A DNA stretch of 64,000 bases from Patescibacteria group bacterium (lineage in GTDB: Bacteria; Patescibacteriota; Minisyncoccia; Phycocordibacterales; UBA1550). Positions 16,831 to 34,576 of the stretch are shown in pieces. The position numbers and the translations under genes are program-made. The notes below the pieces were generated by a model. The model saw only the letters and a list, made by a program, of their open reading frames with translations, was not told the DNA's origin and did no database searches. Numbering within the stretch: position 1 is the first letter of the stretch; each line of letters opens with the position of its first letter. The stretch covers positions 43,844 to 107,843 of the forward strand of contig JBBTWP010000005.1 in NCBI GenBank assembly GCA_038062675.1, read 5' to 3'.

Positions 16831-16842
16831 AGAATAATTTAT

Positions 16843-17475: not shown

Positions 17476-17509
17476 AAGATTGCACAGTAATAGATTACCA
17501 AAATACTGA

Positions 17510-18322
17510 CTATTTTTCAATCTCGAACGTGGTACCATACCCAAAATTCCTCAAAACGCCATTTTTTTTATGAGCATCAAAAAATTTTATGAACGGTAAT
17601 AAAAATTCAAAATAAGGCAAACAAATACTCGATGCTTCATACGAAATTAATTTATAGCCATTCTTTTTGATTTTTCTTTTCATAACCCAGGGGAATCTGA
17701 AAACATGCGGGACTCCATCATTCCCCGCATATGATTCGTCGACACCCTCCTGGTTCAATATGAGAGCACGGCACATTTTTAAAAAACCAAAAGGTAGTGC
17801 AACAAAAGACCTCACCCCTTTCAAATAAAACCATCCGTGCCCAACCTGTACCAAAGAACACATGTTCAAGATTGTTGGTATCGCAACAACAGCGCGTTTC
17901 TTAGTGACCCTCATTATCTCTCTTAACCCCTGATCAAAATCAGGGAGATGTTCAAGTACGTGTGAGCTCACCACGAGATCAAACGTACTATCTGGAAATG
18001 GCAATTTTTCTGCATCGCCAACCAAAAAATTCGTGTTCATTTCAACATTATTTTCAATTGCATACAATTTTGATTTTTCAACATTTGGCCTAGACAAATC
18101 ACAACCTGTCACCACTGCACCCTTTTTTGCCATCATTATAGAGAGCACTCCCTCACCACACCCTGCATCAAGCACCTTCATCCCGGGAGTAACGAAGTTC
18201 AGTATGCTTTCATATTGCTTAACGTGAGCATATTGTCGCAAACGATACGGTGAACGTAGCCTCTTATCTATAATTTCATCAGCATAATCGCTGTAAAAAT
18301 TTTTTATGTCTTTACTTTGCAT
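17510..18322 (-). CDS. class I SAM-dependent methyltransferase
   Basis: Motif I is VLDAGCGEGVLSIMM. An acidic motif follows: DLVVSSHVLEHLPD. Confidence 0.82.
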   Translation of the reverse strand: MQSKDIKNFYSDYADEIIDKRLRSPYRLRQYAHVKQYESILNFVTPGMKVLDAGCGEGVLSIMMAKKGAVVTGCDLSRPNVEKSKLYAIENNVEMNTNFLVGDAEKLPFPDSTFDLVVSSHVLEHLPDFDQGLREIMRVTKKRAVVAIPTILNMCSLVQVGHGWFYLKGVRSFVALPFGFLKMCRALILNQEGVDESYAGNDGVPHVFRFPWVMKRKIKKNGYKLISYEASSICLPYFEFLLPFIKFFDAHKKNGVLRNFGYGTTFEIEK

Positions 18323-19475
18323 TTCTTTTTGTAAGCGCAGTGTACACTTCTACGGTCTTTTTACCAATAGCGACCCAACTTAATTCTTGCTCCGCATATC
18401 GTAAGGCAGCGGACACTCGTTTACTGTCGGGGGTCAAGATACTTTCACTAATAGCATCCGCCAGTTCTTGATATCGCTCATTCTCAAGAGAGAGCGGTGC
18501 GTCGTAATTAGACCCTTCCCACGACACAAGCCGCACAAGTCTCCCCCTTTCTTCATTTTTACCAAGGAGTTCTGGAAGTCCTCCAACTCTACTTGCCACA
18601 ATACTCTTCCCCATCCCCATGGCCTCTGCGCACGCAATACTCGATGACTCCGCAGTCGATGGGAACACTACTGTATCAGCAAGCTTAAGATATGCAGGAA
18701 TTTTATCATTCTCGACTGACCCAAGTACATCAACGTACTCATGAATACCGAGGTCATTAATCCGACTTTCAATATATTCCCTCATTCTACCGTCTCCGAT
18801 CATAATATATTTTAAACTTGGAACCTTTTTCACAATAAAAGGAATTGCTTCCACTAAAAAATGAATTCCATTTTTGGGAACAAGGCGACGCACCGTAACA
18901 ACAACACGAGTATTCTCATATTGTCGTTTCAAGCTGACTGGTATTTCAACTTTTCTATTAAACATTTCTGTATTGTATCCATTCAAAACAATACTAATTT
19001 TTTTATTAGGGACATATTTTCGTGCAACCTGAGCAAGATCATCCGAAGTAGAAATAATATGCGTTGAAAAAACGAGAGATATGTATCGATACAATGAATG
19101 GGCGCTGCGATAAACAAATTCAGCGTTGGGAATATCAAGCGTACCAAGCCCGTGCAATACTACTACGACAGGAATATTGCGTAATCTCCCGACAATACTT
19201 GCAATGGCAGCAAGGCGATAAGAATAATGACAATGAATTATATCTACTCCTTTTGATTCACGCCAAAGTAACCCGAAGAGTGACGGGATTCCACTTCTAC
19301 TCCACGGGATTCTGACCACAGGGTGATTGTTTTCAAAATCGCTTGTCTTGATTTCGTTTGTTACTAAAGTAATCTTATGCCCACCTTTCTCAAGCTCTTC
19401 AATTAAATTTTTAACATGAATTTCCGCTCCGCCGATCAGAGGGAGGAATGTGTCGCTGGTCATCAATATTTTCAT
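18312..19475 (-). CDS. GT4 family glycosyltransferase (GT-B fold)
   Basis: The N-terminus is MKILMTSDTFLPLIGGAEIHVKNL. The C-terminal domain carries the E-x7-E-like sugar-donor motif region ...IACAEAMGMGKSIVASRVGGLPELL. Confidence 0.88.
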   Translation of the reverse strand: MKILMTSDTFLPLIGGAEIHVKNLIEELEKGGHKITLVTNEIKTSDFENNHPVVRIPWSRSGIPSLFGLLWRESKGVDIIHCHYSYRLAAIASIVGRLRNIPVVVVLHGLGTLDIPNAEFVYRSAHSLYRYISLVFSTHIISTSDDLAQVARKYVPNKKISIVLNGYNTEMFNRKVEIPVSLKRQYENTRVVVTVRRLVPKNGIHFLVEAIPFIVKKVPSLKYIMIGDGRMREYIESRINDLGIHEYVDVLGSVENDKIPAYLKLADTVVFPSTAESSSIACAEAMGMGKSIVASRVGGLPELLGKNEERGRLVRLVSWEGSNYDAPLSLENERYQELADAISESILTPDSKRVSAALRYAEQELSWVAIGKKTVEVYTALTKRNAK

Positions 19476-20575
19476 ATATGTTTCAAAATAATATCAAGCA
19501 TTTTTTGAGAAGCGTCCCCTTTTCCAAAAGGTGACCCCCATTTTATTGAGTGTTCATTGTCCATTATTTCCTGGACACACTTCAAAATGCGTTTTTGAGA
19601 AACACCAGCGATACGATTTCCTCCCCCTACAAGTGTTTCGGGTCGCTCTGTATTATCACGCAAGGTTACGCAGGGAACCCTTAGAATCGATGCCTCCTCT
19701 TGTAGTCCCCCTGAATCCGTGAGAACTATTCGAGCATTACTGCTCAATTGAAGAAAATCAAGATACCCAACAGGCTCAATAAACTTAATTGCATTATCAA
19801 CATGAAGTCCGAAATATTTGATCATCTTGCTTGCGCGGGGATGTATCGGGAAAATAACAGGCATACTATATTTCTGAGTAATAAGCATGAGTCCGTTGAG
19901 GACGGACTGGAATCGCGCTTTGTCATCAACATTTTCCTGACGATGCGCAGTCACTAAAAAATATCCCTTTGGGGATAATTCCATTTTTTTCAAGATGCGA
20001 GAAGCTCTGGCGGTTTTCGTGTTTTGCATCACTGCATCAACAACAGTATTTCCCACAAGAAATATTTTTTTAGTGCTGATGTTTTCTTTTATTAAATTAT
20101 TTTTTGAGTCTTTTGTTGGAGTGAACAAAAAATCGGAGATATGATCAACCATCACCCGATTTAACTCCTCAGGCATTTGGCGATCATAAGATCGTAACCC
20201 CGCCTCAATATGCCCAACTGGGATATGGAGCTTCACCGCAGCTAGTGCGCCCGCTAAAACAGTATTTGTATCCCCTTGAACAAGAACGATGCTTGGTTTT
20301 TCTTTTACCAAGATTTCTTCTATCTCGATAAGCATTTTCCCCGTTTGTCCACCATGGGACCCTGAACCAGTCTGTAAGTTGTATTTTGCGGATGGCAAAT
20401 TCAGGTCTTTAAAAAAAACTTTATCAAGATTCTCAGAATAGTGTTGGTGGGTATGCAGTACAAAAAATGGCACTTTTCGCTTGATGCATTCGTGAATAAC
20501 GGGTGCCATTTTGACTATTTCGGGTCGAGTCCCAAAGACAAAACAAATCTGTTTATTTTTAGTATTTTTCATCAT
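19472..20575 (-). CDS. wecB: UDP-N-acetylglucosamine 2-epimerase (non-hydrolysing), WecB/MnaA family
   Basis: ICFVFGTRPEIVKMAPV...LVQGDTNTVLAGALAAVKLHIPVGHIEAGLRSYDRQMPEELNRVMVDHISD is a canonical epimerase_2 core. The start is placed at ATG 20575 (MMKNTKNK...), giving an ATGA overlap with the upstream gene. Confidence 0.9.
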   Translation of the reverse strand: MMKNTKNKQICFVFGTRPEIVKMAPVIHECIKRKVPFFVLHTHQHYSENLDKVFFKDLNLPSAKYNLQTGSGSHGGQTGKMLIEIEEILVKEKPSIVLVQGDTNTVLAGALAAVKLHIPVGHIEAGLRSYDRQMPEELNRVMVDHISDFLFTPTKDSKNNLIKENISTKKIFLVGNTVVDAVMQNTKTARASRILKKMELSPKGYFLVTAHRQENVDDKARFQSVLNGLMLITQKYSMPVIFPIHPRASKMIKYFGLHVDNAIKFIEPVGYLDFLQLSSNARIVLTDSGGLQEEASILRVPCVTLRDNTERPETLVGGGNRIAGVSQKRILKCVQEIMDNEHSIKWGSPFGKGDASQKMLDIILKHI

Positions 20576-21717
20576 ATCCCAATAAATGATAGTATCGTAG
20601 CGGCTCGTCTGTCCCATGTATATCTCTGCACATCTTTGCATGCTTGTTCTGCAATACTAGCCGAAAAGTCTTTATTTTTCAAGAGAGACAGTATACCGTT
20701 CAACAGACCATCAATATCTTCATTCTTGACAACAAGAGCGTTGCTTTCATTTAATATTTCTCTCACCGACGGCAGGTCTGAAGTAATAATCGGCACACCG
20801 CTCGCCATATACTCAAAAAGCTTAAGTGGTGACATGTAAAGTGCATAGTGTGGCATATTAGGATAGTTCATCACAAGTACGTCAGACGCTTTCATATACA
20901 TGAATGCTTCTTTCTGGGGAATATGTGTAACGATTTTATAATATTCCTCATCTACTCCTGCTCGCTGAAATACTTTTTTCACCTCCTCGACTTCATTCTC
21001 ATTTATCCCGACGAGAAGCAAGAACGCTTTTGGTAAAGCAGGTAAAACTTTTGAAAAACTAACGATGAGGTCATCGACCCCTTTTGGCTCGCCCATAGTT
21101 TTGTACTTACCAATATAGCCGATAATTTTTTTATCCCAAGGCAAACCTAAACGTCCCCTCAATTCTACTTGATTTTCCCCCATATTGAACTGCTTGATAT
21201 CCACCCCATCCGGCGCAACAAGTATCTTTCCTTTATTTACATCTTTTGTGACGTAAAAATCTTTGAGCCCTTGTGTGATTGAGATAATACCAAGCGCGGT
21301 CTGCAATACGCGAGCAGCAAAGAAATTTTCTTTTTTAGTGTGCGTTTCCCAAAAAATATTCTTTTTGAAGAAACCGATAAGGAACAGCGTCAATTCGTCG
21401 CGGGAATAGATTACTTGGGCATTTTTCGACAAAAGTGTGTAAAAAAATGCAAAAAAAGCAAATGAGGATGTTTGTATCCAGAAGCCGATTCTCCCTAGCA
21501 TAATGAGGTCAAGTGATGGAATTTTAGTAATTGTGAATTTTTTCTCCACCCCATAGTAAACAAAGGGGTCTTCCTTTATTTTGTTGAAGCGCCACGGAAC
21601 AACGAGCTCAACGGTTGCCCCAGCCGTGTTCGCGAAAGCTTCACACATCTTCATAATCTGGATACCGTGTGCTTTTTCTGTGGGCAATCGTATATTTGCG
21701 AGATAAATTAATTTCAT
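20572..21717 (-). CDS. GT4 family glycosyltransferase
   Basis: The N-terminus is MKLIYLANIRLPTEKAHGIQIM. The GT-B C-terminal domain is ...LFEYMASGVPIITSDLPSVREIL. Confidence 0.85.
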   Translation of the reverse strand: MKLIYLANIRLPTEKAHGIQIMKMCEAFANTAGATVELVVPWRFNKIKEDPFVYYGVEKKFTITKIPSLDLIMLGRIGFWIQTSSFAFFAFFYTLLSKNAQVIYSRDELTLFLIGFFKKNIFWETHTKKENFFAARVLQTALGIISITQGLKDFYVTKDVNKGKILVAPDGVDIKQFNMGENQVELRGRLGLPWDKKIIGYIGKYKTMGEPKGVDDLIVSFSKVLPALPKAFLLLVGINENEVEEVKKVFQRAGVDEEYYKIVTHIPQKEAFMYMKASDVLVMNYPNMPHYALYMSPLKLFEYMASGVPIITSDLPSVREILNESNALVVKNEDIDGLLNGILSLLKNKDFSASIAEQACKDVQRYTWDRRAATILSFIGI

Positions 21718-21718
21718 C

Positions 21719-22516
21719 TTATTTTTTGACCTTTACCAGAGAAATGAAGGCTTCTTTTATCAGCCAAATATGATAACAAGCATTATACCATTCATACAAA
21801 AACGGCATCCTCTTCCCTGATCCTCTCATAAATGTTAGCGCGTATTTGATTAAGTACTTCACAAAAATCAAAGAATTACTAAGAAAAAGACCTGAGAACG
21901 TCTTGGGTGTGACCTTCATGGTGTGAATTTGCATTTGGGCGTAGTTGTACCATTTTTTCTTTAGGGTACTGATATCACCCATAGGAACATACTCCGGGTT
22001 TTTCAATATTCCTATTTCGTATCCTTCTTTTACACTGATTCTTTCGTGAATTTTTTTTATGAAACCAAAAGTTGCCGGAATATAGAAAAAACGTAGTTGG
22101 TAATTAGGATACATAGAGGAACGCTCAACAACCTCGCCGTTTACCACATATTTTCTTGGTAATTTATACGCGTAGTGGATGTTATTTTGTTCTTGATTCA
22201 CAATCTCACGCATCTCAGCTACCGCCTCAGGAGAGAGGTATTCATCGCTGTCGATAAAAAGAAACCACGGGTATCTCGCCTGCTTGACCCCCTTGTTGCG
22301 AACTGCTGAGAAATCGTTAATCTTCACCTCTTTTTCTCGTGCATCAGTTTGAGGGATAACGCAGGCACCGTATTTTTCTGCAAGCGCAACCGTCCCGTCA
22401 GTGCTACCGCCGTCAAGAATAATTATATCTTCAAAATCGCGTACACTTTCGAGACAACGCTTTAATGTCTTTTCAGAGTTTAGGGTCAAAATTTCTACAC
22501 TGCAAGGTATTTTCAT
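21719..22516 (-). CDS. GT2 family glycosyltransferase
   Basis: SVEILTLNSEKTLKRCLESV...IIILDGGSTDGT and a DxD motif (FIDSDE). Confidence 0.85.
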   Translation of the reverse strand: MKIPCSVEILTLNSEKTLKRCLESVRDFEDIIILDGGSTDGTVALAEKYGACVIPQTDAREKEVKINDFSAVRNKGVKQARYPWFLFIDSDEYLSPEAVAEMREIVNQEQNNIHYAYKLPRKYVVNGEVVERSSMYPNYQLRFFYIPATFGFIKKIHERISVKEGYEIGILKNPEYVPMGDISTLKKKWYNYAQMQIHTMKVTPKTFSGLFLSNSLIFVKYLIKYALTFMRGSGKRMPFLYEWYNACYHIWLIKEAFISLVKVKK

Positions 22517-22521
22517 AAAAA

Positions 22522-24399
22522 TTATTCCATAAAACGCTTATACCAAATTTGAAAAGTAAAAATTGACCACAGGGTGTTTAGAGCGTACTTTTGTCCTGAT
22601 TGATGATCTTTTAAAATTTTTTGAATTGCATTAAAGTCAAACATATCTTTCGTGCCCACACAATAAGAAGGGGACAAGACTTCTTCAAAATAACCCTTCA
22701 AGTCTCCTCGTATCCATTTCGCTGCAGGGGAAAACCACCCCCATTTTGGCTGATCTAGAACAAAGTCTGGCAAATATGCCGACATCGCCCTTTTGAGGAT
22801 ATCCTTTCCTTTATATCCAGTGCCTGCTTTTCCTATATGGATTCCTTTTCCTCCTATTTTGTATTCTAAAGGGATGCGGTCCGCCAATTCCACCAAACGA
22901 TGATCCAAAAAAGGAACGCGTTGCTCAAGCCCTGAGGCCATAGACATTTTGTCGGACCTCACGAGTGATTCGCTTGGCAACCACGAAAGCAGGTCAGTTC
23001 GCATAAACTGCCTCGTGAAATTCTTTTTATCTACGGTATTAAAATATAGTTTTTTATACCATTCTGCAGTCGCGGCAGGATTGTTGTATTCACGGCAAAG
23101 AAACAACTCTATCTGATCTTCTTTCTGAGAAAGGAAATTCAAATACCGAGAAACTCCTGGTGGTGTGTTTATTTTTTCATAGAGACTACTTTTGCCCACT
23201 ATATCAAAGATAATTTCTGTTACTATATTTTTTCTTAAAAACTTTGGTATTTTTTGGAAACGATCTATTAAATAATTATAATAATAGCGTTCATACCCCC
23301 CGAATAATTCATCTCCCCCATCCCCACCCAACACAACCGCTACCTGTTTTGAAGCTTCACGTGCAAGCAAAAGATTTACTGCCTGTACATGGTTTGAGAT
23401 TGGCTCATCCATGTGGTATATGGAGTCCTCCAGACTATTTTTAATATCTTTCGGCGAAAGAATATATTCGTTGTGAATTGTTCCAAAATGATGGGCTGTT
23501 TTTCGTGCAACTTTTGCATCATTATTATACTTCTCTGCCTGTGCTGTTTCCTCAAATCCAACGGAGAATGTTTTTATATTTTTTGAGAATGAGCTAGCTA
23601 CGCCGGCAATAATTGTTGAATCGATGCCACCAGACAAAAATACTCCTACAGGACGATCGGAGACCAACTGCATCTTGATTGAGTCAGTAAGTAAATTTGA
23701 GATTTCAGACTCTAAATATTCCCTGTCATAAATGAGTGGTTTCTCCTCCATCTCCCAATATCGCTTAATTTCCATTTTTCCTCTTTCAACAACAGCGTAA
23801 TGCCCTGGCTCAAGTTTGTAAACATTTTCCCAAATAGTAAGAGGGGCAGGAACGTATAAAAGGCGAAAGTAAATATTTAATGCATCTTTATTTATAGTTT
23901 TATCTATCTTGTGCTTAAAAATAGCTTTTGCTTCTGAAGAAAAGATAAATACTCCCTCCTTATGGTAATAATAAAGTGGTTTTATGCCTACTCTGTCGCG
24001 CGCCAAAAATAACCGGCCTGTTTGATTGTCCAATATAGCAAAAGCAAACATCCCATTGAATTTCTCAAGGCAATCACTCCCCCATTCTTCGTATGCACAC
24101 AAAATTACTTCTGTATCAGTATCTGACACAAAGACATACCCTTTCGCAATAAGTTCTTTTCTTATATCTAAAAAATTATAGATTTCTCCATTATAAACAA
24201 TGGTATATCGCTTATCCTTGCCATGCATTGGTTGATGACCAGCTTGGCTTAAGTCAATAATCGACAAACGATTATGGCCGAGGGAGTAATTTGCAGACAA
24301 AAACACGCCCGCATCGTCCGGACCACGATGCTTCGTTGTTTCATTCATTTCGTGAATCAAGCCCTTATCTATGAAATTGAATCCGTTTATGCCACACAT
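22522..24399 (-). CDS. asnB: asparagine synthase (glutamine-hydrolysing)-family amidotransferase
   Basis: N-terminal nucleophile MCGINGF, a GATase-2 domain, then an ATP-pyrophosphatase PP-loop (VGVFLSGGIDSTIIAG). In glycan clusters such AsnB-like enzymes commonly amidate uronic acids. Confidence 0.9.
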   Translation of the reverse strand: MCGINGFNFIDKGLIHEMNETTKHRGPDDAGVFLSANYSLGHNRLSIIDLSQAGHQPMHGKDKRYTIVYNGEIYNFLDIRKELIAKGYVFVSDTDTEVILCAYEEWGSDCLEKFNGMFAFAILDNQTGRLFLARDRVGIKPLYYYHKEGVFIFSSEAKAIFKHKIDKTINKDALNIYFRLLYVPAPLTIWENVYKLEPGHYAVVERGKMEIKRYWEMEEKPLIYDREYLESEISNLLTDSIKMQLVSDRPVGVFLSGGIDSTIIAGVASSFSKNIKTFSVGFEETAQAEKYNNDAKVARKTAHHFGTIHNEYILSPKDIKNSLEDSIYHMDEPISNHVQAVNLLLAREASKQVAVVLGGDGGDELFGGYERYYYNYLIDRFQKIPKFLRKNIVTEIIFDIVGKSSLYEKINTPPGVSRYLNFLSQKEDQIELFLCREYNNPAATAEWYKKLYFNTVDKKNFTRQFMRTDLLSWLPSESLVRSDKMSMASGLEQRVPFLDHRLVELADRIPLEYKIGGKGIHIGKAGTGYKGKDILKRAMSAYLPDFVLDQPKWGWFSPAAKWIRGDLKGYFEEVLSPSYCVGTKDMFDFNAIQKILKDHQSGQKYALNTLWSIFTFQIWYKRFME

Positions 24400-24423
24400 G
24401 ATTGCTTTGTATTATACAATGAG

Positions 24424-25176
24424 TTAATCATTATCCCCAAAACTTGGTTTAGAAAAAATATCGTCCAGACTTGCCTTTCGTGCAACTACACCTATTTGCT
24501 GCCCAGATTGAGGAAAAATCTTCATAAAGAGCTTGGCAAATATATTTCTGGTTTTCCCAACATAAGCAATATTCTCTATTTTGAATCCGTGCATATTGAG
24601 AATTTGCCGAAGCATTGCCGGTCCAAAAAATATTTTATGCTGTGGTTGAGTAAGCAACCTTTTTTCAGTATTACGCAACACCAAAAAATTGTCTTTTGTT
24701 TCATTGTAGGTTAATTCTGACACATCACCTAACGAATCTTTTTTTCTAAAATAAATACGAAATACATTGATATAGCTAAAAACATTAGGGGTATCTATAA
24801 TCAGCTGTCCATCATCCTTAAGTATGCGCGCGCACTCCGAAATAATTTCTCCTGGCCTCCACGAGTGTTCAATAATTTCTCCGGCATAAATACAATCAAA
24901 CATCTTGTCTGGCACAACTCCCGAAAGATTGTGCAGATCTCCGATGTATTGATTCTTAATACCAAGCTTTTCCGCCAGATTCTTGTTAACATCAAGCCCA
25001 AAATATTCACCGCCATTGGATTCAACCATTTTTTCTAAATCAATATTTTTTTCGCCATCGCCCAAATTGCCAACATCTAATAGTTTCACTTTCTTCCCAT
25101 TCAAAAAATGAGCGACGTACTCCGTCCTAGACGGAAAAAATAGTGCTTCTTTTATACTAAAAAAAATATTTCTCAT
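24424..25176 (-). CDS. class I SAM-dependent methyltransferase
   Basis: Motif I is LLDVGNLGDGE (degenerate), followed by a DxxxxxGxxE-like segment (YAGEIIEHSWRPGEII). Low-GC. Confidence 0.7.
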   Translation of the reverse strand: MRNIFFSIKEALFFPSRTEYVAHFLNGKKVKLLDVGNLGDGEKNIDLEKMVESNGGEYFGLDVNKNLAEKLGIKNQYIGDLHNLSGVVPDKMFDCIYAGEIIEHSWRPGEIISECARILKDDGQLIIDTPNVFSYINVFRIYFRKKDSLGDVSELTYNETKDNFLVLRNTEKRLLTQPQHKIFFGPAMLRQILNMHGFKIENIAYVGKTRNIFAKLFMKIFPQSGQQIGVVARKASLDDIFSKPSFGDND

Positions 25177-25190
25177 ACAGTAAATTATTA

Positions 25191-26246
25191 TTATTTAAAC
25201 CTAGTTAATATCTCCACAATTCTCTTAGCTGTTTTACCGTCCCATAAAGGTATCGCTGTTTTTTGTTGACCTATGCGACGCTTCTTATAAGCCTTAAGGA
25301 TGTCTGCCTTCCGCGTGCCAGCAACAATATTTGTGCCGCAAGTCACCGTAATTGGCCTTTCTGTCTCATCGCGCAGTGTTATGCATGGGGTTCCCAGAAA
25401 ACTTGATTCCTCTTGCACTCCACCAGAGTCTGTAAGAACAAGCTTTGCATTTTTTTGATAAAAAAGAGATTCCTTATAGGAAAGTGGCGGGAGTAAGGAA
25501 AAAATCTTTTTCATTCTTTCGGTTAACTTAAACTTCTTTGCCATTTTTTCTGTTCGCGGATGAAGGGGTAAGTAGACCTTGTTGTTCTGCGCGATAATTT
25601 CAAGCGCATCGAGTATCCCACTGAACCTTTCTTTGTCATCCACGTTTTCCGCTCGGTGAAGCGTGCAGAAATAAAATTCTTCATTTGTTTTTTTCACTTC
25701 AGGCAAAAACATTTTAAGAGTATCAATCATGATGTTGCCAACAAAATAAACAGCACCATTTATTTTTTCTTTCTTTAAATTTTCTATTCCATTTTCTTCA
25801 GTAACAAAAAGCACATCAGATATCTGGTCAACAATAATCCGATTGATTTCCTCTGGCATTGTTCGGTTAAATGAACGTAGCCCTGCCTCTATGTGTGCAA
25901 GGGGAATCCCCATTTTGTTTGCCACAATCGCCCCAGCAAGTGTTGAATTAACATCACCCACCACTGCAACAAAAGAAGGTTTTTCTTTTTCAAAAATCTT
26001 ACCGAGCTCTGCTACGATTGCCGAAAATTGCGCTATCGCAGATGTGCGGGGAGGGTTAATAGTATAATGTGGCTTAATCCCGAATTCCCTTAGCAAATCT
26101 TCTGACATCTCTGTAGTGAAATGTTGCCCAGTATTTATAAGTGAATGCTTAATGTTTAATCTTTTTAATTCATGACAAAGAGGCGCAACTTTCATAAAAT
26201 TTGGTCTTGCGCCCGCTATTATCATAATGTTGTCTTTATTTTTCAT
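25191..26246 (-). CDS. UDP-N-acetylglucosamine 2-epimerase, second WecB-family paralog
   Basis: MIIAGARPNFMKVAPL...VVGDVNSTLAGAIVANKMGIPLAHIEAGLRSFNRTMPEEINRIIVDQISD is alignable throughout with the 19472-20575 paralog but clearly diverged. Confidence 0.88.
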   Translation of the reverse strand: MKNKDNIMIIAGARPNFMKVAPLCHELKRLNIKHSLINTGQHFTTEMSEDLLREFGIKPHYTINPPRTSAIAQFSAIVAELGKIFEKEKPSFVAVVGDVNSTLAGAIVANKMGIPLAHIEAGLRSFNRTMPEEINRIIVDQISDVLFVTEENGIENLKKEKINGAVYFVGNIMIDTLKMFLPEVKKTNEEFYFCTLHRAENVDDKERFSGILDALEIIAQNNKVYLPLHPRTEKMAKKFKLTERMKKIFSLLPPLSYKESLFYQKNAKLVLTDSGGVQEESSFLGTPCITLRDETERPITVTCGTNIVAGTRKADILKAYKKRRIGQQKTAIPLWDGKTAKRIVEILTRFK

Positions 26247-26255
26247 GACGGAGCG

Positions 26256-27263
26256 CTAATTATCTTCTGCGATTAATTTGCCTATTTTGCCAACAAGAGA
26301 CTTGAGGCTGTGCCCCTCTTCAACAATATCCCTCAGTTGATTCGCCTTATATCGTGACAATTCTCCAGAAAGGATAAACTTTGCAATATCTTCAGGGTTC
26401 TCACTATTGGGACAAATCGAAAGTCCGATAGCTTTTGAATTTCTTGGGGTAGTAACTGGGTATATACCAAAAATCATACCCTCAAGCATTGTTTTATCTA
26501 TCGTTTCTCGGGCCATGTTAATCATCACTCTATATGATGGGTAAATATTTTTTAGGTTGCCCATAGAAACGGGTCCTTTGAAGATCACTCTTTCCCTAAG
26601 ACCCTCTTTTTTTACCAATGCCTCGAGTTCCGCGTAGTAATCCTTCTCCACATCTCTACCATAGACAGTAAGTGTATATTCCTCGGGGAGATACTTTAAC
26701 GTAAGAATTCCTAGCTCTAATCGTTTAGAGCGACAAATACGGTGAACAGAAACAAGGTCAAAGGGAGATGCATTATTTTCTTTAGGAATACCGTCTTTCC
26801 AAAAATCAATATCTATGCCATGCCCGACTATGGTCTTTTTTGGATTACCTTCGTATTGAGGTAAGCTCTGTGGTGTCGCTGCAAACATTCTCTTACATAA
26901 AATACCAGATATCCACAAATGTATGTGCGTAGTATAATGAGTGTACCAAAGATAGATTGGCTTACGCGAAAGGAACCAATACCAGCCACCAAGAGTGACA
27001 TATTCTGGATTCATGTGCACAAAGACCCTGTCATAGTCAAGAGAAAATATTAATTTTAAAAAAATAAAAATTCTTTTGATTTTTTTAAAGCCTTTTTCCT
27101 TTCCCAAAGAAAATACTGGGAACGAGCCATCAAAATCCCCTTTTTCAAGACATATAACCTTAACTGATGCACCTTGATTAATAAACTCCTTGATCCACAA
27201 AATAACAAAAGCTAAGTCATCGTCGTTCTCGTTGATTTTCTGAGTAATAAAAAGTAGCCGCAT
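26256..27263 (-). CDS. glycosyltransferase (GT-B-like), low-GC
   Basis: 335 aa. Its N-terminus MRLLFITQKINENDDDLAFVILWIKEF... is homologous to the remnant ORF at 27282-27542. A C-terminal GT-B-like region follows. Confidence 0.65.
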   Translation of the reverse strand: MRLLFITQKINENDDDLAFVILWIKEFINQGASVKVICLEKGDFDGSFPVFSLGKEKGFKKIKRIFIFLKLIFSLDYDRVFVHMNPEYVTLGGWYWFLSRKPIYLWYTHYTTHIHLWISGILCKRMFAATPQSLPQYEGNPKKTIVGHGIDIDFWKDGIPKENNASPFDLVSVHRICRSKRLELGILTLKYLPEEYTLTVYGRDVEKDYYAELEALVKKEGLRERVIFKGPVSMGNLKNIYPSYRVMINMARETIDKTMLEGMIFGIYPVTTPRNSKAIGLSICPNSENPEDIAKFILSGELSRYKANQLRDIVEEGHSLKSLVGKIGKLIAEDN

Positions 27264-27281
27264 ATAATTATACTAAATGAA

Positions 27282-27542
27282 TTACAAATATTTTACCACA
27301 GCACATACGCTCCTCAAACAGATCGACCTTTTTGAATTTCCGAGCCCACCTCTTTCTTGCGCGAATAATTCCTTACCCAACGAAAACACGCGCACGTTCT
27401 TCGGCAGATCATACTCACCAACCCCAAGTGCAATGACGGTCACCTGCTCTGCGTGCTTCGCAAACTCACGAATCCACCCATGGAAAAATCCGAGGATATC
27501 GTCATTCTGGTCGACTTTTTGGGTGAGGATAAGGAGTTTCAT
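27282..27542 (-). pseudogene. N-terminal remnant (about 60 aa homologous) of a glycosyltransferase paralogous to 26256-27263
   Basis: MKLLILTQKVDQNDDILGFFHGWIREFAKHAEQVTVIALGVGEYD...FSLGKE aligns with MRLLFITQKINENDDDLAFVILWIKEFINQGASVKVICLEKGDFD...FSLGKE, then goes out of frame. GC is about 50%, versus about 36% for the intact paralog. Confidence 0.7.
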
Positions 27543-27545
27543 TTT

Positions 27546-27815
27546 TTATTCAAAAAGGTCGGAATGGGTGCCAGTACGTACAAGTATAATATCATTATCA
27601 TCGTATTTCCAAATCAAAAGCCAATCAAATTCTATGTGGCATTCCCAGCACCCTTCATATTCACCATGTAACTTGTGCGGACGAAACCTATCAGTAAGCC
27701 GTCCATCATTTTCAAGAATAAGCACGACTGCTATCAGTTTTTCAATATCCTTGCCTCTACGTTTTATACGACGGATATCCTTATCAAACTGCGGTTTTGT
27801 AATACTGCGACGCAT
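27546..27815 (-). CDS. yafQ: type II toxin, YafQ/RelE-family mRNA interferase
   Basis: 89 aa. ...HKLHGEYEGCWECHIEFDWLLIWKYDDNDIILVRTGTHSDLFE matches the YafQ C-terminal catalytic region (H...EC HI..DWLLIY...RTG.HSDLF). Confidence 0.88.
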   Translation of the reverse strand: MRRSITKPQFDKDIRRIKRRGKDIEKLIAVVLILENDGRLTDRFRPHKLHGEYEGCWECHIEFDWLLIWKYDDNDIILVRTGTHSDLFE

Positions 27816-27818
27816 ATT

Positions 27819-28085
27819 TTAAAGTGAGCGCATGTGCTTTGCAAAATCCTCAAAAGTGTCAAATGACATTAGATTTTTCTCGGATCGAGCTTCTTCAATC
27901 GCCTTGCGCGTTTCTCTGTTGGGCATACTCAGAGAAAAAGGAATTTCTTTATCATTGGCAATGCGTCGGTAAAATACGTTAATCGCTTCTGAGGGAGATA
28001 TACCGATCTGGGACAATACCATCTCTGCCTTCTTTTTTACTGATGGCTCTATGCGAGCACGAACGAAAGCTGTTTTTGTAGTCAT
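27819..28085 (-). CDS. dinJ: type II antitoxin, DinJ/RelB family
   Basis: MTTKTAFVRARIEPSVKKKAEMVLSQIGISPSEAINVFYRRI is the DinJ ribbon-helix-helix N-terminus. It lies 4 nt upstream of yafQ. Start is taken at ATG 28085. Confidence 0.85.
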   Translation of the reverse strand: MTTKTAFVRARIEPSVKKKAEMVLSQIGISPSEAINVFYRRIANDKEIPFSLSMPNRETRKAIEEARSEKNLMSFDTFEDFAKHMRSL

Positions 28086-28092
28086 ATGTATA

Positions 28093-28114
28093 TTGTAGCA
28101 CATATGTGCTACAA
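28093..28114. promoter_or_regulatory. perfect 22-bp palindromic operator upstream of dinJ-yafQ
   Basis: ttgtagcacatatgtgctacaa lies 8 nt upstream of the dinJ start. This is typical of TA autoregulatory operators bound by the RHH antitoxin. Confidence 0.6.
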
Positions 28115-28122: not shown

Positions 28123-29808
28123 TTACAAATATTTTACCATATATGTTCCCTCGAGCTGGTATCCTTGTTTGCGATAGTATTCGCGCACGCCGATACCCGA
28201 GATAACCGCGAGTTTTTTGTACCCTGCTTCGCGCGCAATGCGTTCTGCCTCCAAGAGGAGTCGTTTCCCAAACCCCATGTGCTGACTTTGTGTTCCCACC
28301 TCCCCTACTTGCGCCATGCGCCCATACGTGTGAAGCTCGCGCACGAGCGCCGCACCCTGGAGCACCTCAAGCCCTGTCCCCACAAACTCCTGCCCATGAT
28401 TTTTCGGCAACCGCAAGCGCAAAAACGACGCGAGCTTGCCTTCATTCGCCTCTTCAAACGAAAGGAAAATTTCCCGCCCACTTCTCGTACGATACTCTTT
28501 CACCGTCAGTGGAAATTTCTCGAGTTCGACTTCCATCCCGCGCACTTCACGACAGCGAATGCACTTGCATCGCCAATTATTTTTCTTCATATCGTTGAAC
28601 AACCACTGGCGCAGATTTGAAACTTTACTTCCTGCTTGAATGTAGGTCGCAGGAATATCGCGAATCACCCGAATGATGCGCACGTATTTTGGGATTTGTT
28701 TTTTTGCACCCGCAAGCACACTCATGAGCTCCTCATCCGTGTACGGTTTAAATTTCCCCGCTTTCCAAATATCAAAAAGTTCACTTCCTTCGAGCACCAT
28801 GCAGGGATACATCTTAATCATGTCGGGATGAAAATCCTCACTCGAAAAAAGCTCGCCAAACATTTCAATATCACGCTGGGGCGTGCTCCCCTCCAAGTTT
28901 GGCATCATGTGGTACACAATCTTAAATCCCGCATTGCGCAAAAGCTCGGTTGCTTCTTTCACCGCACCAATCTTCATGTCGCGCTTGGTGAGCTCGAGCA
29001 CATCGTCGTCGAGATGCTGCACACCAATCTCCACCTTGGTCACCCCGAGGCTACGCAACCGCTCAAGCTCCTTTGGATTGATATAGTCTGGACGCGTCTC
29101 AATCGAAAGCCCAATGAGGCGCGTTCGTGCAGTTTCGTTTTCGTGCATCATCTCAGCGAATGTTTTTTGCCCCTTCGGCGTCTGCATCTCGGGGGGCACG
29201 TCAAAGTTATTGCATGCACGGTAACACTCCGCAAGAAATTCTTCCTGATACTTCGGATGATAAAAACTCCACGTACCGCCAATGACAATCATTTCGATTT
29301 TGTCGGTCTCGTGGCCGTTCATACGAAGCGCGAGCAAGCGACTCGTGATCTGGTCGTACGGATCAAAATCGTTCGCAAGAGCACGCGCCGCCGCCGGCTC
29401 TTTTGAAAGATAGCTCTTGGGCATGTTTGCTTCGGTAGGGCAATACGTGCATCGCCCTGGGCACGGGTAGGGCTTCGTAAGAAGTGAGACCACCGCAACC
29501 CCTGAGTTGCTCCGCGTTTTGAGCTTCTTAAGCACCAGCTCTGCGTTGGAATTCTTCTCTTCTTCTCCCGCCTCCACAAGCGCCTTATAGAACGCCAAGA
29601 GCTCGGCATTGGTAGGCACATGTGACCCATAAAACTCCTCAGAAATGGCCTCCAAGGGCATCAATTGCCCCGCAGGAAGCACTTTATTCTCCCGTGCGTG
29701 AATCTGCCTCCGCAGATCCAAAATACGCCCATAGAGCGCCGGATCAACCATGATTTTCCGCTTCAGGTTCTGCAGGTCCTTTTCGGTTTTGATATCAGTA
29801 AAAAGCAT
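28123..29808 (-). CDS. Elp3-like radical SAM / GNAT acetyltransferase (Elongator catalytic subunit homolog)
   Basis: Radical SAM cluster motif CPGRCTYCP (C-x3-C-x2-C) and a TIM-barrel rSAM region (LSIETRPDYINPKELERLRSLGVTKVEIGVQHLDD). C-terminal GNAT fold (QHMGFGKRLLLEAERIAREAGYKKLAVISGIGVREYYRKQGY). About 55% GC. Confidence 0.85.
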   Translation of the reverse strand: MLFTDIKTEKDLQNLKRKIMVDPALYGRILDLRRQIHARENKVLPAGQLMPLEAISEEFYGSHVPTNAELLAFYKALVEAGEEEKNSNAELVLKKLKTRSNSGVAVVSLLTKPYPCPGRCTYCPTEANMPKSYLSKEPAAARALANDFDPYDQITSRLLALRMNGHETDKIEMIVIGGTWSFYHPKYQEEFLAECYRACNNFDVPPEMQTPKGQKTFAEMMHENETARTRLIGLSIETRPDYINPKELERLRSLGVTKVEIGVQHLDDDVLELTKRDMKIGAVKEATELLRNAGFKIVYHMMPNLEGSTPQRDIEMFGELFSSEDFHPDMIKMYPCMVLEGSELFDIWKAGKFKPYTDEELMSVLAGAKKQIPKYVRIIRVIRDIPATYIQAGSKVSNLRQWLFNDMKKNNWRCKCIRCREVRGMEVELEKFPLTVKEYRTRSGREIFLSFEEANEGKLASFLRLRLPKNHGQEFVGTGLEVLQGAALVRELHTYGRMAQVGEVGTQSQHMGFGKRLLLEAERIAREAGYKKLAVISGIGVREYYRKQGYQLEGTYMVKYL

Positions 29809-30666: not shown

Positions 30667-31935
30667 ATGAGACACTTGCAAAGGTGGTTTTTTGTTTTTA
30701 TGGTGAGTATGTGGTTCGCATCCTTGACACACGCCGACCAGATGACCTACCAACCGGGACCAGAAGGAACGGATGTTTGGATTACCAACACCTATGACTA
30801 TGGGAGTGACTATGGTGTTGATAACGACAAACTTGAGGCGGGCGGCTGGGGCGATGAGTATCGCTTTCTCTGGAAACCCGATTTCACGGGTTTCCCGCAA
30901 AATGCAACCTCGGCTGCTTTGTGGATGTTTCCTTACCCTCGCGGAGATGCTTCAACGCCAGTAAGCATGGCTGTTGATTTGATGACTACGCCATGGAACG
31001 AGGACACTGGGTGGTACAATACGGTAATGAATGGAATACCAGTTGGTGTTCTTTCAGCTCCAACACCAGGGCAATGGTACGGTATAAACATTACTCAAAT
31101 CTACAATCTGTGGAAGGCGGGAACGTACGCCAACCACGGCTTTAGATTTAGGCCGACGGGAATCAACAATCAGTTCTCGCAATTTTTGAGTTCTGATTTT
31201 TGGTACGGTCCGTATCGCCCGAAGGTTGTGGTTACCTACAAGGGCGCGGATTTACAATTTCCTCTTGCGAAACCGAGACCGGCGGGCTTTATTGGGCCAA
31301 TCATTCCTGTGTTCCTTTCACCGTATGCGGCACAGATTAATTCTGTGTTGGACCATTCGTTGACCACGGAAGCGTATTGCAAAGATGATGTCATTGTTGC
31401 ATATACGGGAGAGCGTGCGGAGGAGAAGTATGGAACATCTGGATGGATTGGTACGCCTTCGTCCACAAGATGTTCGGGCAAGACTTTAAACGGATACCGA
31501 CAAGACACCGTCGGAACACCTTTTGTTGTGAATGGAAACTATGGTGGAGGGGCATTTTTGTTCTATGACGGGCATGATGGGTATGACTTTCAAGCCGAGA
31601 ATGGAACAGATGTTCATGCTGCTGCGGATGGAAAAGTGTACAATTCAAACGCTGTTGGGGAAGAGAATGTGAGGATCGAGCATCCGAGCGGATATGTTAC
31701 TCAGTATTGGCACATGCCAAAACGATATGTAGTAGAGGGACAACTTGTTTCAAAAGGTCAAAAAATCGGTATCGTAGGAAAAGGGCACCTGCACTTTACG
31801 GTGAAGAAAGGTAAGCTTTCAGAACCAGCAAAACTGCAACTCGTCGACCCCTACGGCTGGAAAGGCGAGTATGGCACGGATCCACTCAAAGTTGACGGTA
31901 AAGACAATGCTTGTCTGTGGGCGGTTTGTCAGTAG
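30667..31935 (+). CDS. secreted M23-family (LytM-type) metallopeptidase with N-terminal accessory domain
   Basis: Signal peptide (WFFVFMVSMWFASLTHA). The C-terminal LytM domain carries HxxxD (YDGHDGYDF) and HxH (GHLHFTV) zinc ligands plus GQKIGIVG. RBS AAAGGGG lies 7 nt upstream. Confidence 0.85.
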   Translation: MRHLQRWFFVFMVSMWFASLTHADQMTYQPGPEGTDVWITNTYDYGSDYGVDNDKLEAGGWGDEYRFLWKPDFTGFPQNATSAALWMFPYPRGDASTPVSMAVDLMTTPWNEDTGWYNTVMNGIPVGVLSAPTPGQWYGINITQIYNLWKAGTYANHGFRFRPTGINNQFSQFLSSDFWYGPYRPKVVVTYKGADLQFPLAKPRPAGFIGPIIPVFLSPYAAQINSVLDHSLTTEAYCKDDVIVAYTGERAEEKYGTSGWIGTPSSTRCSGKTLNGYRQDTVGTPFVVNGNYGGGAFLFYDGHDGYDFQAENGTDVHAAADGKVYNSNAVGEENVRIEHPSGYVTQYWHMPKRYVVEGQLVSKGQKIGIVGKGHLHFTVKKGKLSEPAKLQLVDPYGWKGEYGTDPLKVDGKDNACLWAVCQ

Positions 31936-32016
31936 TTCCTTTGTGTTGTTGATGTTAAAAAGTTAAGCAATCATTCAATCTCCTTGCCGTTCGCGGTGAG
32001 GGGATTTTTTTTGTAA
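31842..32016. repeat. 175-bp direct repeat, copy 1 (3' end of M23-peptidase gene plus terminator region)
   Basis: Identical to 32719-32893 over 175 nt: tcgtcgacccctacggctggaaaggcgagtatggcacggatcc...gcggtgaggggattttttttgt. Confidence 0.9.
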
Positions 32017-32027
32017 ATATTTCCTTG

Positions 32028-32666
32028 TTATTCGAGGAATCTGAAGGTGGAGAGGACTGCATCAAGGAGTTTTTGTGATTCACTATTACTGAGAATATTG
32101 AACATAAAAGACTTTTCTTTGCGAAAAAAACTTGCCCGAGAAACACTCATGTTGTCATAATACTTTATTTTTTCTCCGTTCAAAATACTCTCTCTAGAAA
32201 TAATTTTCTCTTCTACTCCTAAATTTTTCCAATAGGTTGTTGTTGCCGCTCTTTCCCAGACTTCCTTAGAGGTAACTCTAAATCCCAAAGATGGTGGATC
32301 GTATCTCTGTCCAGTTAGTAGTTCTTGGTGAATGCTCAGAACAGGGCTACTGCATTCGAAAATTTGGGAGCTCATTGGCATATCGTCTTCGTAATTCCAT
32401 GATGTATCATACAAAAACCACCCCTTCGGATACTTAAACTCATACCCATACTTCTCATTTCGGCACACCGGCCAACTTGCGATTGCTTCAGGAGAAAGGT
32501 CGGGGAGTTGAATGGGTAGTTTTTCATATTCCGACAATGGTTCCACTGTTGTTTTTGCAGGTTCAGGAATCGGCTCAACAGATATTTGATTCTGTGAAAT
32601 CACCACCCCCACGACGACAACTGCCACAATAATCCCCCCGAGTAGTATTTTTTTCTTCTTTTCCAT
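32028..32666 (-). CDS. membrane-anchored hypothetical protein, paralog A (N-terminal 80 aa identical to paralog B)
   Basis: MEKKKKILLGGIIVAVVVVGVVISQNQISVEPIPEPAK...CRNEKYGYEFKYP, then a divergent middle and a related C-terminus (...LSTFRFLE). Confidence 0.7.
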   Translation of the reverse strand: MEKKKKILLGGIIVAVVVVGVVISQNQISVEPIPEPAKTTVEPLSEYEKLPIQLPDLSPEAIASWPVCRNEKYGYEFKYPKGWFLYDTSWNYEDDMPMSSQIFECSSPVLSIHQELLTGQRYDPPSLGFRVTSKEVWERAATTTYWKNLGVEEKIISRESILNGEKIKYYDNMSVSRASFFRKEKSFMFNILSNSESQKLLDAVLSTFRFLE

Positions 32667-32718
32667 AAAATGACTTTAGCATGTTTTGTTTGATATCCCA
32701 ACCACACTACACCCCAGT

Positions 32719-32893
32719 TCGTCGACCCCTACGGCTGGAAAGGCGAGTATGGCACGGATCCACTCAAAGTTGACGGTAAAGACAATGCTTGTCTGTGGGC
32801 GGTTTGTCAGTAGTTCCTTTGTGTTGTTGATGTTAAAAAGTTAAGCAATCATTCAATCTCCTTGCCGTTCGCGGTGAGGGGATTTTTTTTGTG
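32719..32893. repeat. 175-bp direct repeat, copy 2 (orphan copy of peptidase 3' end plus terminator)
   Basis: Exact copy of 31842-32016, 877 bp downstream. It is not part of any intact ORF. Confidence 0.9.
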
Positions 32894-32905
32894 AGTATTT
32901 TAGAA

Positions 32906-33553
32906 TTAGTCGAGGAATTTGAAGGTGGAAATAATCGCATTCATGAGTTTTTCTCCTTTGAGATTAGGTACTGTCAAAAAAATAAATTTGTCTTTTTTGT
33001 AGAAAATCCCTGCATTAATAGAAAATATAGCAATCTGATATTTTACTGTTTTTCCATGGAGTACAAATTCTTTGAAGATAACCTCTTTTTTCTTTAGCAG
33101 TCCAAATTCTTTTACAGAGTTTGCCACTATGTCCCAATCATCTATGTCCCTTATCGAAACCCCAATAGATAGAGGAGCAAAACTAGAATCAGCTAACCCC
33201 CCTTGAGAAACTATTATCATTAATCTATCACATTCGAGAATCTTAGGGACGGGTAACACATTGTTTCCGCGCATATCATAAAGTTCTTCTTCATCATGAA
33301 CCGTCCACCCCCTCGGATACTTAAACTCATACCCATACTTCTCATTTCGGCACACCGGCCAACTTGCGATTGCTTCAGGAGAAAGGTCGGGGAGTTGAAT
33401 GGGTAGTTTTTCATATTCCGACAATGGTTCCACTGTTGTTTTTGCAGGTTCAGGAATCGGCTCAACAGATATTTGATTCTGTGAAATCACCACCCCCACG
33501 ACGACAACTGCCACAATAATCCCCCCGAGTAGTATTTTTTTCTTCTTTTCCAT
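32906..33553 (-). CDS. membrane-anchored hypothetical protein, paralog B
   Basis: Same first 80 codons, nucleotide-identical and including about 20 nt upstream of the ATG. The middle is diverged and the C-terminus ...ISTFKFLD is homologous to paralog A. Confidence 0.7.
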   Translation of the reverse strand: MEKKKKILLGGIIVAVVVVGVVISQNQISVEPIPEPAKTTVEPLSEYEKLPIQLPDLSPEAIASWPVCRNEKYGYEFKYPRGWTVHDEEELYDMRGNNVLPVPKILECDRLMIIVSQGGLADSSFAPLSIGVSIRDIDDWDIVANSVKEFGLLKKKEVIFKEFVLHGKTVKYQIAIFSINAGIFYKKDKFIFLTVPNLKGEKLMNAIISTFKFLD

Positions 33554-33670
33554 AAAATGACTTTAGCATGTTTTGCATAGTGTTGCCATCTTAATTTTCG
33601 ATGTAGTATTTCGTCTACTCAAAAAACCTTACTCCATGAGCCTAGCTTCGAAATCTTTACCGGCACAAAA

Positions 33671-34576
33671 TCAACTATTTTTAGATAGTTTTTCTTCATG
33701 CAAAGATTCAATTTTTGTAAGGCGTTTTATTAAATCAGTAATTCTAATCAAAAGAACTGATATACCCTTATCATTTTCAGGAAAATATTTTCGAATATAA
33801 GATTCTACTGCCATTAGAACAAAAACATTAATCGGGCAAAGAAGCCTAGGGTCTGGAGTAACAGATTCGGGCGTCGGTCTAAATCCAGAATCAACTTCTT
33901 CTATATGGTGTTTTACTAAGTCTACCCAAGAACCATGAATGGAGTGAGATTGAATTCCTTGAAGCATCGGATAAATTGATTCCATATCAAGAGCAGTAAG
34001 AATAGTTTTATAATCCTTTCTCCTTGGGATTATTAATTTATCAATCTCCGTTTCTGCTATCCCTGAAATTTTAAAAACACCAGTAATAGATTTAAGCATT
34101 CTGGTTTCAATCGGCAAAATACTTCCTCTTCTTTTTATCTTCTCTTGAAGGAAAGCGTACATTTCTTTTTCTGGCTTAAGGCTTGATTTTATAAATTCTT
34201 CAAAGTCTTCGACATTTGCCTTTTCACAAAAAAACTTTAAATTTGTGGCTGATTCTGTAATACAACGATTGAGTGCCATAACTACTTCGCCATGCTCACT
34301 AACTTTATCAACTAATAAGGCCATAATGGCCTTCATAAATTTTACTATTCTAATAACTAATCCTGCCCCTATTGCTTGGTTGCGAGAAAGTACTCCCTCT
34401 TTTTGATCAAACGATTCATGCAAGCTAGCTGACAACACTATGACTATTGCTGTTTCTCGGTACAAATCAAAAACCACTTTTGAGAAAGCATCCTCTGAGC
34501 CTGCATTGATATCAGAAAAATCTGTGGCAGGACTTAGGAGATCTGCTATAGATTTTTCAGTAACTTTTGTATTCAT
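33671..34576 (-). CDS. hypothetical all-alpha protein, orphan gene in low-GC islet
   Basis: 301-aa ORF with about 36% GC and no recognisable motif. It sits between the duplicated paralogs and a GT4 gene. Confidence 0.5.
   Translation of the reverse strand: MNTKVTEKSIADLLSPATDFSDINAGSEDAFSKVVFDLYRETAIVIVLSASLHESFDQKEGVLSRNQAIGAGLVIRIVKFMKAIMALLVDKVSEHGEVVMALNRCITESATNLKFFCEKANVEDFEEFIKSSLKPEKEMYAFLQEKIKRRGSILPIETRMLKSITGVFKISGIAETEIDKLIIPRRKDYKTILTALDMESIYPMLQGIQSHSIHGSWVDLVKHHIEEVDSGFRPTPESVTPDPRLLCPINVFVLMAVESYIRKYFPENDKGISVLLIRITDLIKRLTKIESLHEEKLSKNS

Follow-up and report, generated by a model that had tools for sequence, protein, structure and literature searches.

The 64,000-nt stretch of DNA analysed here (the window) comes from a Patescibacteria metagenome-assembled genome from the Hainich groundwater well H41. 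It contains a gene for a secreted peptidoglycan endopeptidase of the M23 type, which is followed by two tandem genes on the opposite strand for membrane-anchored proteins, called partners below. The 3' end of the peptidase gene and the 5' ends of the partner genes each occur twice in nearly or fully identical form, and the partner ectodomains are strongly diverged. We describe this locus, whose layout was assessed on assembled contigs, compare it with related loci, and discuss how the arrangement may have come about and what the partners may do.

The M23 gene occupies 30667-31935 on the plus strand, with its start called at 30709 by gene callers elsewhere. Its product has an N-terminal signal peptide, an N-terminal DNRLRE/CBM96 domain and a C-terminal M23 catalytic domain. 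The NCBIfam DNRLRE domain NF033679 is matched at 59 bits (cut-off 34) and Pfam PF01551 at 67 bits (cut-off 28.7) over residues 302-382. The catalytic motifs HxxxD and HxH are present in the alignment as YDGHDGYD and HLHF, and the best functional relatives are peptidoglycan DD-endopeptidases such as ShyA/ShyC and MepM. The genes around it encode a methyltransferase, an Elp3-like protein, a DUF5677 protein and glycosyltransferases.

Two blocks make up the repeat. Block A is 174 nt long and exact (31841-32014 = 32719-32892, offset 878), and past it an identity of about 93% runs on to 32074/32952. Block B has an exact core of 263 nt (32426-32688 = 33313-33575, offset 887) and reaches 271 nt with one mismatch (32418-32688 = 33305-33575), the sole difference being codon 81 (AAG/K versus AGG/R). 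Since A and B are the only repeats of at least 40 nt, direct or inverted, in the 64-kb window, chance is excluded as their origin. There are no inverted repeats of that length in the window, and no diversity-generating retroelement or inversion system was found, as judged by the absence of such genes among the neighbours and of other repeats of at least 40 nt in the window. Block A begins 2 nt 5' of the V codon in the M23 motif VDPYGW and contains the last 31 M23 codons, the stop codon, the 3' untranslated region, a 13-bp hairpin and a T-run. Block B contains a 22-nt leader and codons 1-83 of both minus-strand genes. The exact repeats have sharp ends that lie at conserved protein motifs. A sequence-only reading of the window had reported both repeats at nearly these coordinates and had annotated them as M23 tail plus terminator and as leader plus 5' codons of the minus-strand genes; both the repeats and their annotation were confirmed.

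Each unit of the resulting array starts with an M23 3' end from VDPYGW and its terminator; after these, in convergent orientation, comes the gene for a membrane-anchored protein of the PsbP/Mog1 fold. In the first unit, block A1 (31841-32014, plus strand) is the 3' end of the live M23 gene, with the stop at 31933-31935, the 3' untranslated region and the intrinsic terminator found in a terminator scan at 31977-32014 (13-bp hairpin at 31977-32006 and T-run). The proximal partner gene, copy 1 (32028-32666, minus strand, 212 aa), encodes a transmembrane helix, a disordered linker and an ectodomain that we call cassette V1 (32028-32417, minus strand, codons 84-212, GC content 0.37). Block B1 (32418-32688, minus strand) provides its leader and codons 1-83 and ends at the family motif CRNEKYGYEFKYP[KR]GW. 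A junction of 30 nt (32689-32718), unique in the window, then joins B1 to block A2 of the second unit (32719-32892, plus strand). A2 is an orphan: it encodes the M23 3' fragment from VDPYGW to AVCQ, with a stop at 32811-32813, and carries a copy of the terminator with the hairpin at 32855-32884. The orphan was recovered by tblastn as a fragment of 32 codons, and the orphan stretch of the window was placed at 32694-32813. The distal partner gene, copy 2 (32906-33553, minus strand, 215 aa), has the same 5' module as copy 1, given by block B2 (33305-33575, minus strand, leader plus codons 1-83), and a different ectodomain, cassette V2 (32906-33304, minus strand, GC content 0.34). The GC content of the cassettes, 0.34-0.37, compares with 0.44-0.47 in the blocks. 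Directly beyond the distal partner gene lies the DUF5677 gene (33671-34576, minus strand, 301 aa, GC content 0.34), which together with the cassettes forms a low-GC patch between regions of GC content 0.45-0.53.

The terminator hairpin folds at -21.5 kcal/mol (z = -3.0) on the plus strand and at -10.2 kcal/mol, with no U-run, on the minus strand. A bidirectional terminator between the partner genes was considered and rejected because the minus-strand hairpin is weak and lacks the U-run; for the same reason, read-through from copy 2 into copy 1 is possible. A scan for sigma-70-like promoters gave no minus-strand site upstream of either partner gene, a result that is uninformative for Patescibacteria. 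The Rfam scan of the window returned two tRNAs only, and a scan of the window with hidden Markov models and motifs returned no further family members or copies.

The two partner proteins (MEK7538921.1 and MEK7538922.1; locus tags AAB552_03710 and AAB552_03715) matched no family above threshold in Pfam and NCBIfam scans; PsbP_2 (PF18933) reached 15.2 bits with copy 2 (cut-off 27) and did not match copy 1. More distant, multi-domain members of the family do pass the PsbP_2 threshold. AlphaFold models built on an alignment of 63 sequences had pLDDT values of 85.3 and 85.1, and in both a transmembrane helix (residues 2-25) leads through a disordered linker, which reaches to about residue 58, into an alpha/beta domain. 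These models resemble solved structures of the PsbP/Mog1 class: BT_1490 (paired scores of 10.4 / 11.4), cyanobacterial PsbP (9.3 / 10.3), Tsi3 (9.0 / 10.5), TplEi (8.8 / 9.4) and Mog1 (8.3 / 9.0). On the strength of the models, both partners are predicted to be intact PsbP/Mog1-fold proteins, with high confidence. A profile search against 1.84 billion representatives collected 7468 proteins with E <= 1e-3, of which 553 reach E <= 1e-10, and the named members are all from Patescibacteria, some of them annotated as "PsbP-related protein". The hallmark [TV]CRNE[KE]YGYEFKYPxxW is nearly invariant even in this unbiased search, and in the partner of the conserved gene pair it reads CRNEKYGYEFKYPxGW. 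We considered whether the hallmark is kept as a recombination signal at the DNA level and rejected this, since the third codon positions vary freely among lineages, which places the constraint on the protein. Neither the subfamily with the Cys motif nor its link to M23 was found in searches of Pfam, NCBIfam and the literature.

Divergence between the two partner genes changes abruptly where block B ends. Within block B, synonymous divergence is nil (pS = 0) and one nonsynonymous change is present. Over residues 84-190, the copies share 50% DNA identity and 26% protein identity, with saturated synonymous sites (pS = 0.73) and pN = 0.45; in the last 22 residues the protein identity is 41%. When the proteins were split at the hallmark motif and the identities computed separately, the N-part and C-part disagreed here and elsewhere in the family. 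Copy 1 and copy 2 are 100% identical in the N-part and 31% in the C-part, whereas copy 1 and P0002, a protein from another organism, share 52% and 50%. The N-part is the more similar in P0012 versus P0024 (83% and 33%), P0003 versus P0014 (61% and 34%) and P0004 versus P0005 (61% and 28%), and the order is reversed in P0012 versus P0004 (30% and 59%). The same break is seen in DNA: between two other loci, L043 and L005, the partner genes match at 86% identity from the upstream leader through the motif, and beyond it there is no detectable similarity. Swapping of ectodomains at a breakpoint just behind the motif is recurrent in the family. Since V1 is nearer to P0002 than to V2, the V1 lineage is older than the identity of block B, and the middles of the two genes are old cassettes joined by recombination, not the product of rapid divergence after duplication. 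The gene for P0002, the closest relative of V1, adjoins VKOR and DsbA-like genes (L004, 18-1122), neighbours that fit the formation of an extracytoplasmic disulfide by the two conserved ectodomain cysteines (C68 and C105 in copy 1).

A contig from a sister strain (L047, Logan SRR34294545) carries the same array with different contents. About 780 nt of it match the window at 100% identity, a stretch that begins within the orphan and takes in the junction, B1, a V1 that is likewise 100% identical, and the A1 terminator. In the distal slot, next to the same junction, it has a third cassette, V3, with 32-45% DNA identity to V2. The orphan of L047 (599-694) reads YPNHTTPQFVDPYGWKGEYGTDPLKVDGKDNACLWETCQLW between two stops, ends in CLWETCQLW and is followed by its own, different terminator. 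The ending ETCQ[LW]W is the type found in the M23 genes of five other loci (L005, L010, L045, L048 and L049), whereas the resident gene ends in AVCQ. Within L047 the orphan and the resident tail are 94% identical, and over 80 nt only, so the perfect match of A1 and A2 in the window came about later, by homogenisation. L047 copy 1 has R at codon 81, and B2 of the window is 100% identical to block B of that copy. The enzyme gene varies as well. Its segment 31370-31810 (plus strand), which spans the catalytic domain, has 53-67% DNA identity with indels to L047 1596-2075, and the flanks have 95-98% on the 5' side and 93-98% on the 3' side; a diverged catalytic segment between such flanks means that the M23 gene is itself mosaic between strains. 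From these comparisons we conclude that the two-unit array and its junction predate the split of the two strains and that the distal unit was exchanged after it. The repeat has the properties of a homogenised tandem repeat: abrupt tracts of identity, discordance between N-part and C-part, and tracts whose ends and contents differ between strains.

The pairing of the two kinds of gene is not confined to this genome. A DNRLRE/CBM96-M23 gene convergent with a partner gene is present in eight lineages (the window, L005/L006, L010, L039, L043, L045, L048 and L049), which are all the members of the close subfamily with the strict motif whose contigs reach far enough downstream. The number of tandem partner genes per locus is 1 to 3. 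One partner is present in L005/L006 (Minisyncoccota), L045, L048 and L049. L010, from another Hainich well, has two old, uniformly diverged tandem partners next to M23, and L039 (5716-8896) has three tandem membrane-anchored genes of 579, 199 and 236 aa convergent to M23. The first and third genes of L039 share 88% DNA identity over 174 nt of leader and N-terminus and differ afterwards; a distant lineage thus shows the same pattern of a common 5' module and a variable body. The outer neighbours vary by locus (ABC-F, Nramp, MFS, an S1 protein, a methyltransferase or DUF5677), which indicates that the pair is kept together by something other than general synteny.

The locus of L043/L044 has an orphan of its own. 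A family gene is followed there by an orphan M23 tail, then by a 250-aa gene and finally by the full-length M23 gene. The orphan (820-981) ends in FTVKKGTQRADPYGWRGEYGTDPLKVDGKDNVCLWETCQWY and a stop, has its own terminator, and adjoins the family gene encoding P0024, before the 250-aa membrane protein. The N-terminal half of the full M23 gene is 84% identical in DNA to that of L005; the catalytic half has no DNA match there, and both it and the tail are of a different type that resembles L039. The proximal 250-aa protein has no detectable similarity to the family, to the L039 partners or to the other loci examined, and with such a protein a co-transfer of M23 type and partner type could not be shown at this locus. 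Similar modularity is seen in other pairs. L045 and L049 are 92% identical in the M23 N-domain, 75% in the catalytic part, 64% in the partner N-part and 34% in the partner C-part, and L005 and L010 are 90% identical in the M23 N-domain and 55% in the catalytic part.

Then, how did the array arise? The reading that we favour, with a probability of roughly 0.65, is that of a two-unit module array at a hypervariable locus, in which recombination at conserved anchors stacks and exchanges cassettes. Judged from the anatomy of the locus, a single unequal or illegitimate join would have put two locus haplotypes in series, creating the 30-nt junction and leaving the M23 3' end and terminator as an orphan scar between the partner genes. 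Later homologous recombination or gene conversion would have exchanged the intervening pieces, with the M23 tail from VDPYGW and the partner's 5' module of leader, transmembrane segment, linker and motif serving as anchors. In the window strain, both anchors have been homogenised to 100%; V1 and V2 have stayed anciently diverged. In keeping with this, recombination breakpoints coincide with the conserved motifs VDPYGW in M23 and KYPxGW in the partner, the cassettes and the M23 catalytic module are exchanged between related genomes, and M23 tails with their terminators remain, scar-like, next to partner genes that were displaced. Direct repeats that are identical can further be expected to yield deletions, and one scaffold may show one, as described next.

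Several points weigh against this reading. In the scaffold L051 (Hain_H41_02um_R2, coverage 5), V1 is joined to the sequence upstream of B2 over a 100-N gap inside block B (2283-2382), which represents either a collapse of the scaffold over the repeat or a real deletion haplotype that B1 x B2 recombination produced. Two sources are conceivable for the perfect identity of the blocks A and B: intragenomic conversion, or the homology arms of a replacement by a conspecific donor with the order M23-A-V2-B. The junction may derive from an M23 loop, may be the leader that natively lies upstream of V1, or may be filler; in the M23 frame it reads as a stop followed by YPNHTTPQF, too short to decide on an M23 loop remnant. 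Finally, L047 is a short de Bruijn contig, in which the linkage of the M23 allele to V3 across the shared stretch of 780 nt is not guaranteed.

An alternative that we hold to be unlikely is that the partners are ancient tandem paralogs, as in L010, whose 5' ends were homogenised purely by intragenomic gene conversion, with neither stacking nor exchange between strains. Old tandem partners beside M23 do exist in L010, the 5' ends of the L039 genes are alike over their 174 nt, and the K81R site suggests that conversion tracts end at different places from strain to strain. This account leaves unexplained the M23 3' fragment and terminator between the two genes of the window, a place where L010 and L039 have only 26-75 nt. 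It likewise does not explain the replacement of the distal cassette and the orphan end in L047, nor the independent orphan of L043.

It is very improbable that the layout is an artefact in which the assembler threaded two strain alleles of a single-copy gene in series. The source is a metagenome, the repeats exceed typical k-mers, and 100-N gaps lie inside block B in L001, L003 and L051, the last of which follows a single-copy path. However, L001 and L003, two further 117-kb Hainich scaffolds obtained from replicate filters, show the units in the same order and, apart from one 100-N gap each inside one copy of block B, match the window at 100% identity. L002, a contig of 3.1 kb from the 0.2-µm fraction, begins 55 nt into A2 and continues through the junction, B1, V1 and A1 into M23, and L047, from a different run and assembler, has orphan, junction, B1, V1, A1 and M23 on one contig; the junction sequence of the window recurs unchanged in both L002 and L047. 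A unique junction of 30 nt must exist in the reads and cannot be invented by an assembler, so the adjacency of B to A exists in the DNA; it was assembled between A2 and B1 across several replicates and filter fractions and in the independent run. In addition, an orphan of the same kind occurs in an unrelated lineage in two samples (L043 and L044).

Least credible of all is the idea that one unit was recently duplicated in tandem and that very fast positive selection then acted on the ectodomain. Identical flanks and intact open reading frames would be expected from such a history. Against it, the synonymous sites are saturated in the middle and unchanged in the flanks, the DNA identity of the middles (about 50%) comes close to what unrelated sequences show, V1 is closer to a protein from another organism than to V2, V3 sits in the same slot in the sister strain, and the cassettes differ from the blocks in GC content. 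The sequence-only reading had rightly ruled out the uniform decay of an old duplicate, as exact identity lies beside 50% DNA identity, and such a contrast does imply recent recombination or gene conversion. Its proposal of a recent duplication of a diversifying paralog pair is not borne out by the middle pS of 0.73 against 0 in block B, by the C-part identity of V1 to P0002 (50%) against that to copy 2 (31%), or by the unrelated third cassette beside the same junction in L047. The pattern is indeed non-uniform and the work of recombination, but the middles are ancient rather than freshly diversified. The sequence-only reading also overlooked three things: the copied M23 tail as an orphan scar with a counterpart in another lineage, the conserved pairing of M23 gene and partner, and the swap of the M23 catalytic domain from strain to strain.

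What the partner does may be approached from its neighbour and its fold. We infer that at the cell surface it binds the M23 enzyme or controls it, for self-protection by inhibition or for docking, and its most likely role would be self-protection. This is suggested by the conservation of the pair, by a turnover of catalytic module and partner alike that resembles conflict, and by the fold matches to Tsi3 and TplEi; these two type VI secretion system (T6SS) immunity proteins are among the best structural matches of the partner models, and Tsi3 is the immunity protein against the muramidase Tse3 (PMC3792639). The turnover of cassettes would then reflect a conflict-driven diversification of the M23 catalytic module and its partner.

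Some observations count against such a function. The PsbP/Mog1 fold is of a generic kind. With 7468 representatives at E <= 1e-3, the wider family is very large; most of its distant members are not adjacent to M23, and L007-L009, three such members, have no M23 gene next to them. The window and L047 have different M23 catalytic alleles but an identical V1, a misfit to a simple model of cognate pairs, and the linkage across L047 is read from a short de Bruijn contig. In a Mantel test of M23 catalytic divergence against partner C-domain divergence with 7 pairs, all matrices correlated (r 0.55-0.73), which reflects general phylogeny only and does not discriminate between models.

A tentative extension of the self-protection role, which we consider doubtful, is that the locus represents an undescribed polymorphic effector/partner system of Patescibacteria, in which the M23 catalytic module and the partners are exchanged as cassettes, orphans are left behind and the partners are cognate inhibitors conferring self-immunity or an acquired immunity to the enzymes of neighbours. 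If this is true, the locus would serve strain-level cell-wall warfare or host attack in ultra-small episymbionts. Literature searches for Patescibacteria with M23/PsbP or with polymorphic toxins returned no description of an M23/PsbP-like pair. Rather unlikely, in our judgement, is the alternative that the partners are variable surface proteins, such as adhesins, host-recognition proteins or phage-receptor decoys, whose linkage to M23 is merely positional. A conserved 5' module with variable ectodomains does resemble surface-variation families, most of the very large PsbP-like family is not linked to M23, and V1 stays unchanged where the catalytic allele of M23 changes. Yet a convergent M23 gene is found in all eight close-subfamily lineages with sufficiently long contigs despite their differing outer neighbours, and the orphan scars show that M23 tail and partner move together.

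Some features of the wider surroundings may be recorded here. A long stretch of lower GC content (0.32-0.40, against 0.42-0.53 elsewhere in the window) extends over about 11000-28000. The Elp3-like protein is encoded at 28123-29808 (minus strand, 561 aa) and combines radical SAM and Radical_SAM_C domains with a C-terminal GNAT acetyltransferase, an architecture unusual in bacteria. Just upstream of its gene lies a RelB antitoxin / YafQ-ParE toxin pair (about 27546-28103, minus strand), for which the Pfam matches come from the equivalent genes of L001 and L050.

Among known systems, the closest architecture is that of the orphan cdiA-CT/cdiI and rhs-CT/rhsI modules of contact-dependent inhibition (CDI) and Rhs loci (Poole et al. 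2011, PMC3150448). In both cases the secreted enzyme combines a conserved N-terminal region with a C-terminal one that can be exchanged and is accompanied by a small partner gene, displaced 3' fragments with their partner genes accumulate beside the live gene, and modules are exchanged between strains through recombination at conserved sequences. There are also clear differences. The M23 partner genes are convergent in all eight lineages (window, L005, L010, L039, L043, L045, L048 and L049) and not downstream on the same strand, and the M23 orphans are short non-catalytic tails of 32-55 codons instead of complete toxin domains. The M23 locus has a Sec signal peptide and no dedicated delivery system (type V, type VI or type VII secretion) among its neighbours, and the toxin and immunity roles are putative. 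In contrast with the Tse3-Tsi3 pair of Pseudomonas aeruginosa (PMC3792639; PDB 4LUQ), the enzyme is an M23 endopeptidase and not a muramidase, and no T6SS is involved. The partners share about 12% sequence identity with Tsi3, and the fold is common to PsbP, Mog1, LpqN and DcrB, which are not immunity proteins. The variable lipoproteins of Mycoplasma (vlp/vsp) are a case of concerted evolution of tandem paralogs with conserved 5' ends. The partners resemble them in joining a near-identical leader and membrane-targeting N-terminus to divergent mature regions, but have no lipobox, internal tandem repeats, phase-variable promoter tract or inversion sites.

The interest of the locus lies in its modular, strain-variable character more than in the repeat itself. 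Its inter-strain exchange of modules, orphan scars and swapped catalytic domains are genomic hallmarks of conflict systems, and it shows, as a clean case from nature, how conserved protein motifs can anchor the recombination by which cassettes are swapped. It also gives a first functional lead for a very large uncharacterised PsbP-like family with thousands of cluster representatives. Little is known about how ultra-small Patescibacteria interact with their hosts and with each other, and the pair of a secreted cell-wall hydrolase and a conserved yet hypervariable surface partner is a testable candidate for attack and self-protection in these organisms.

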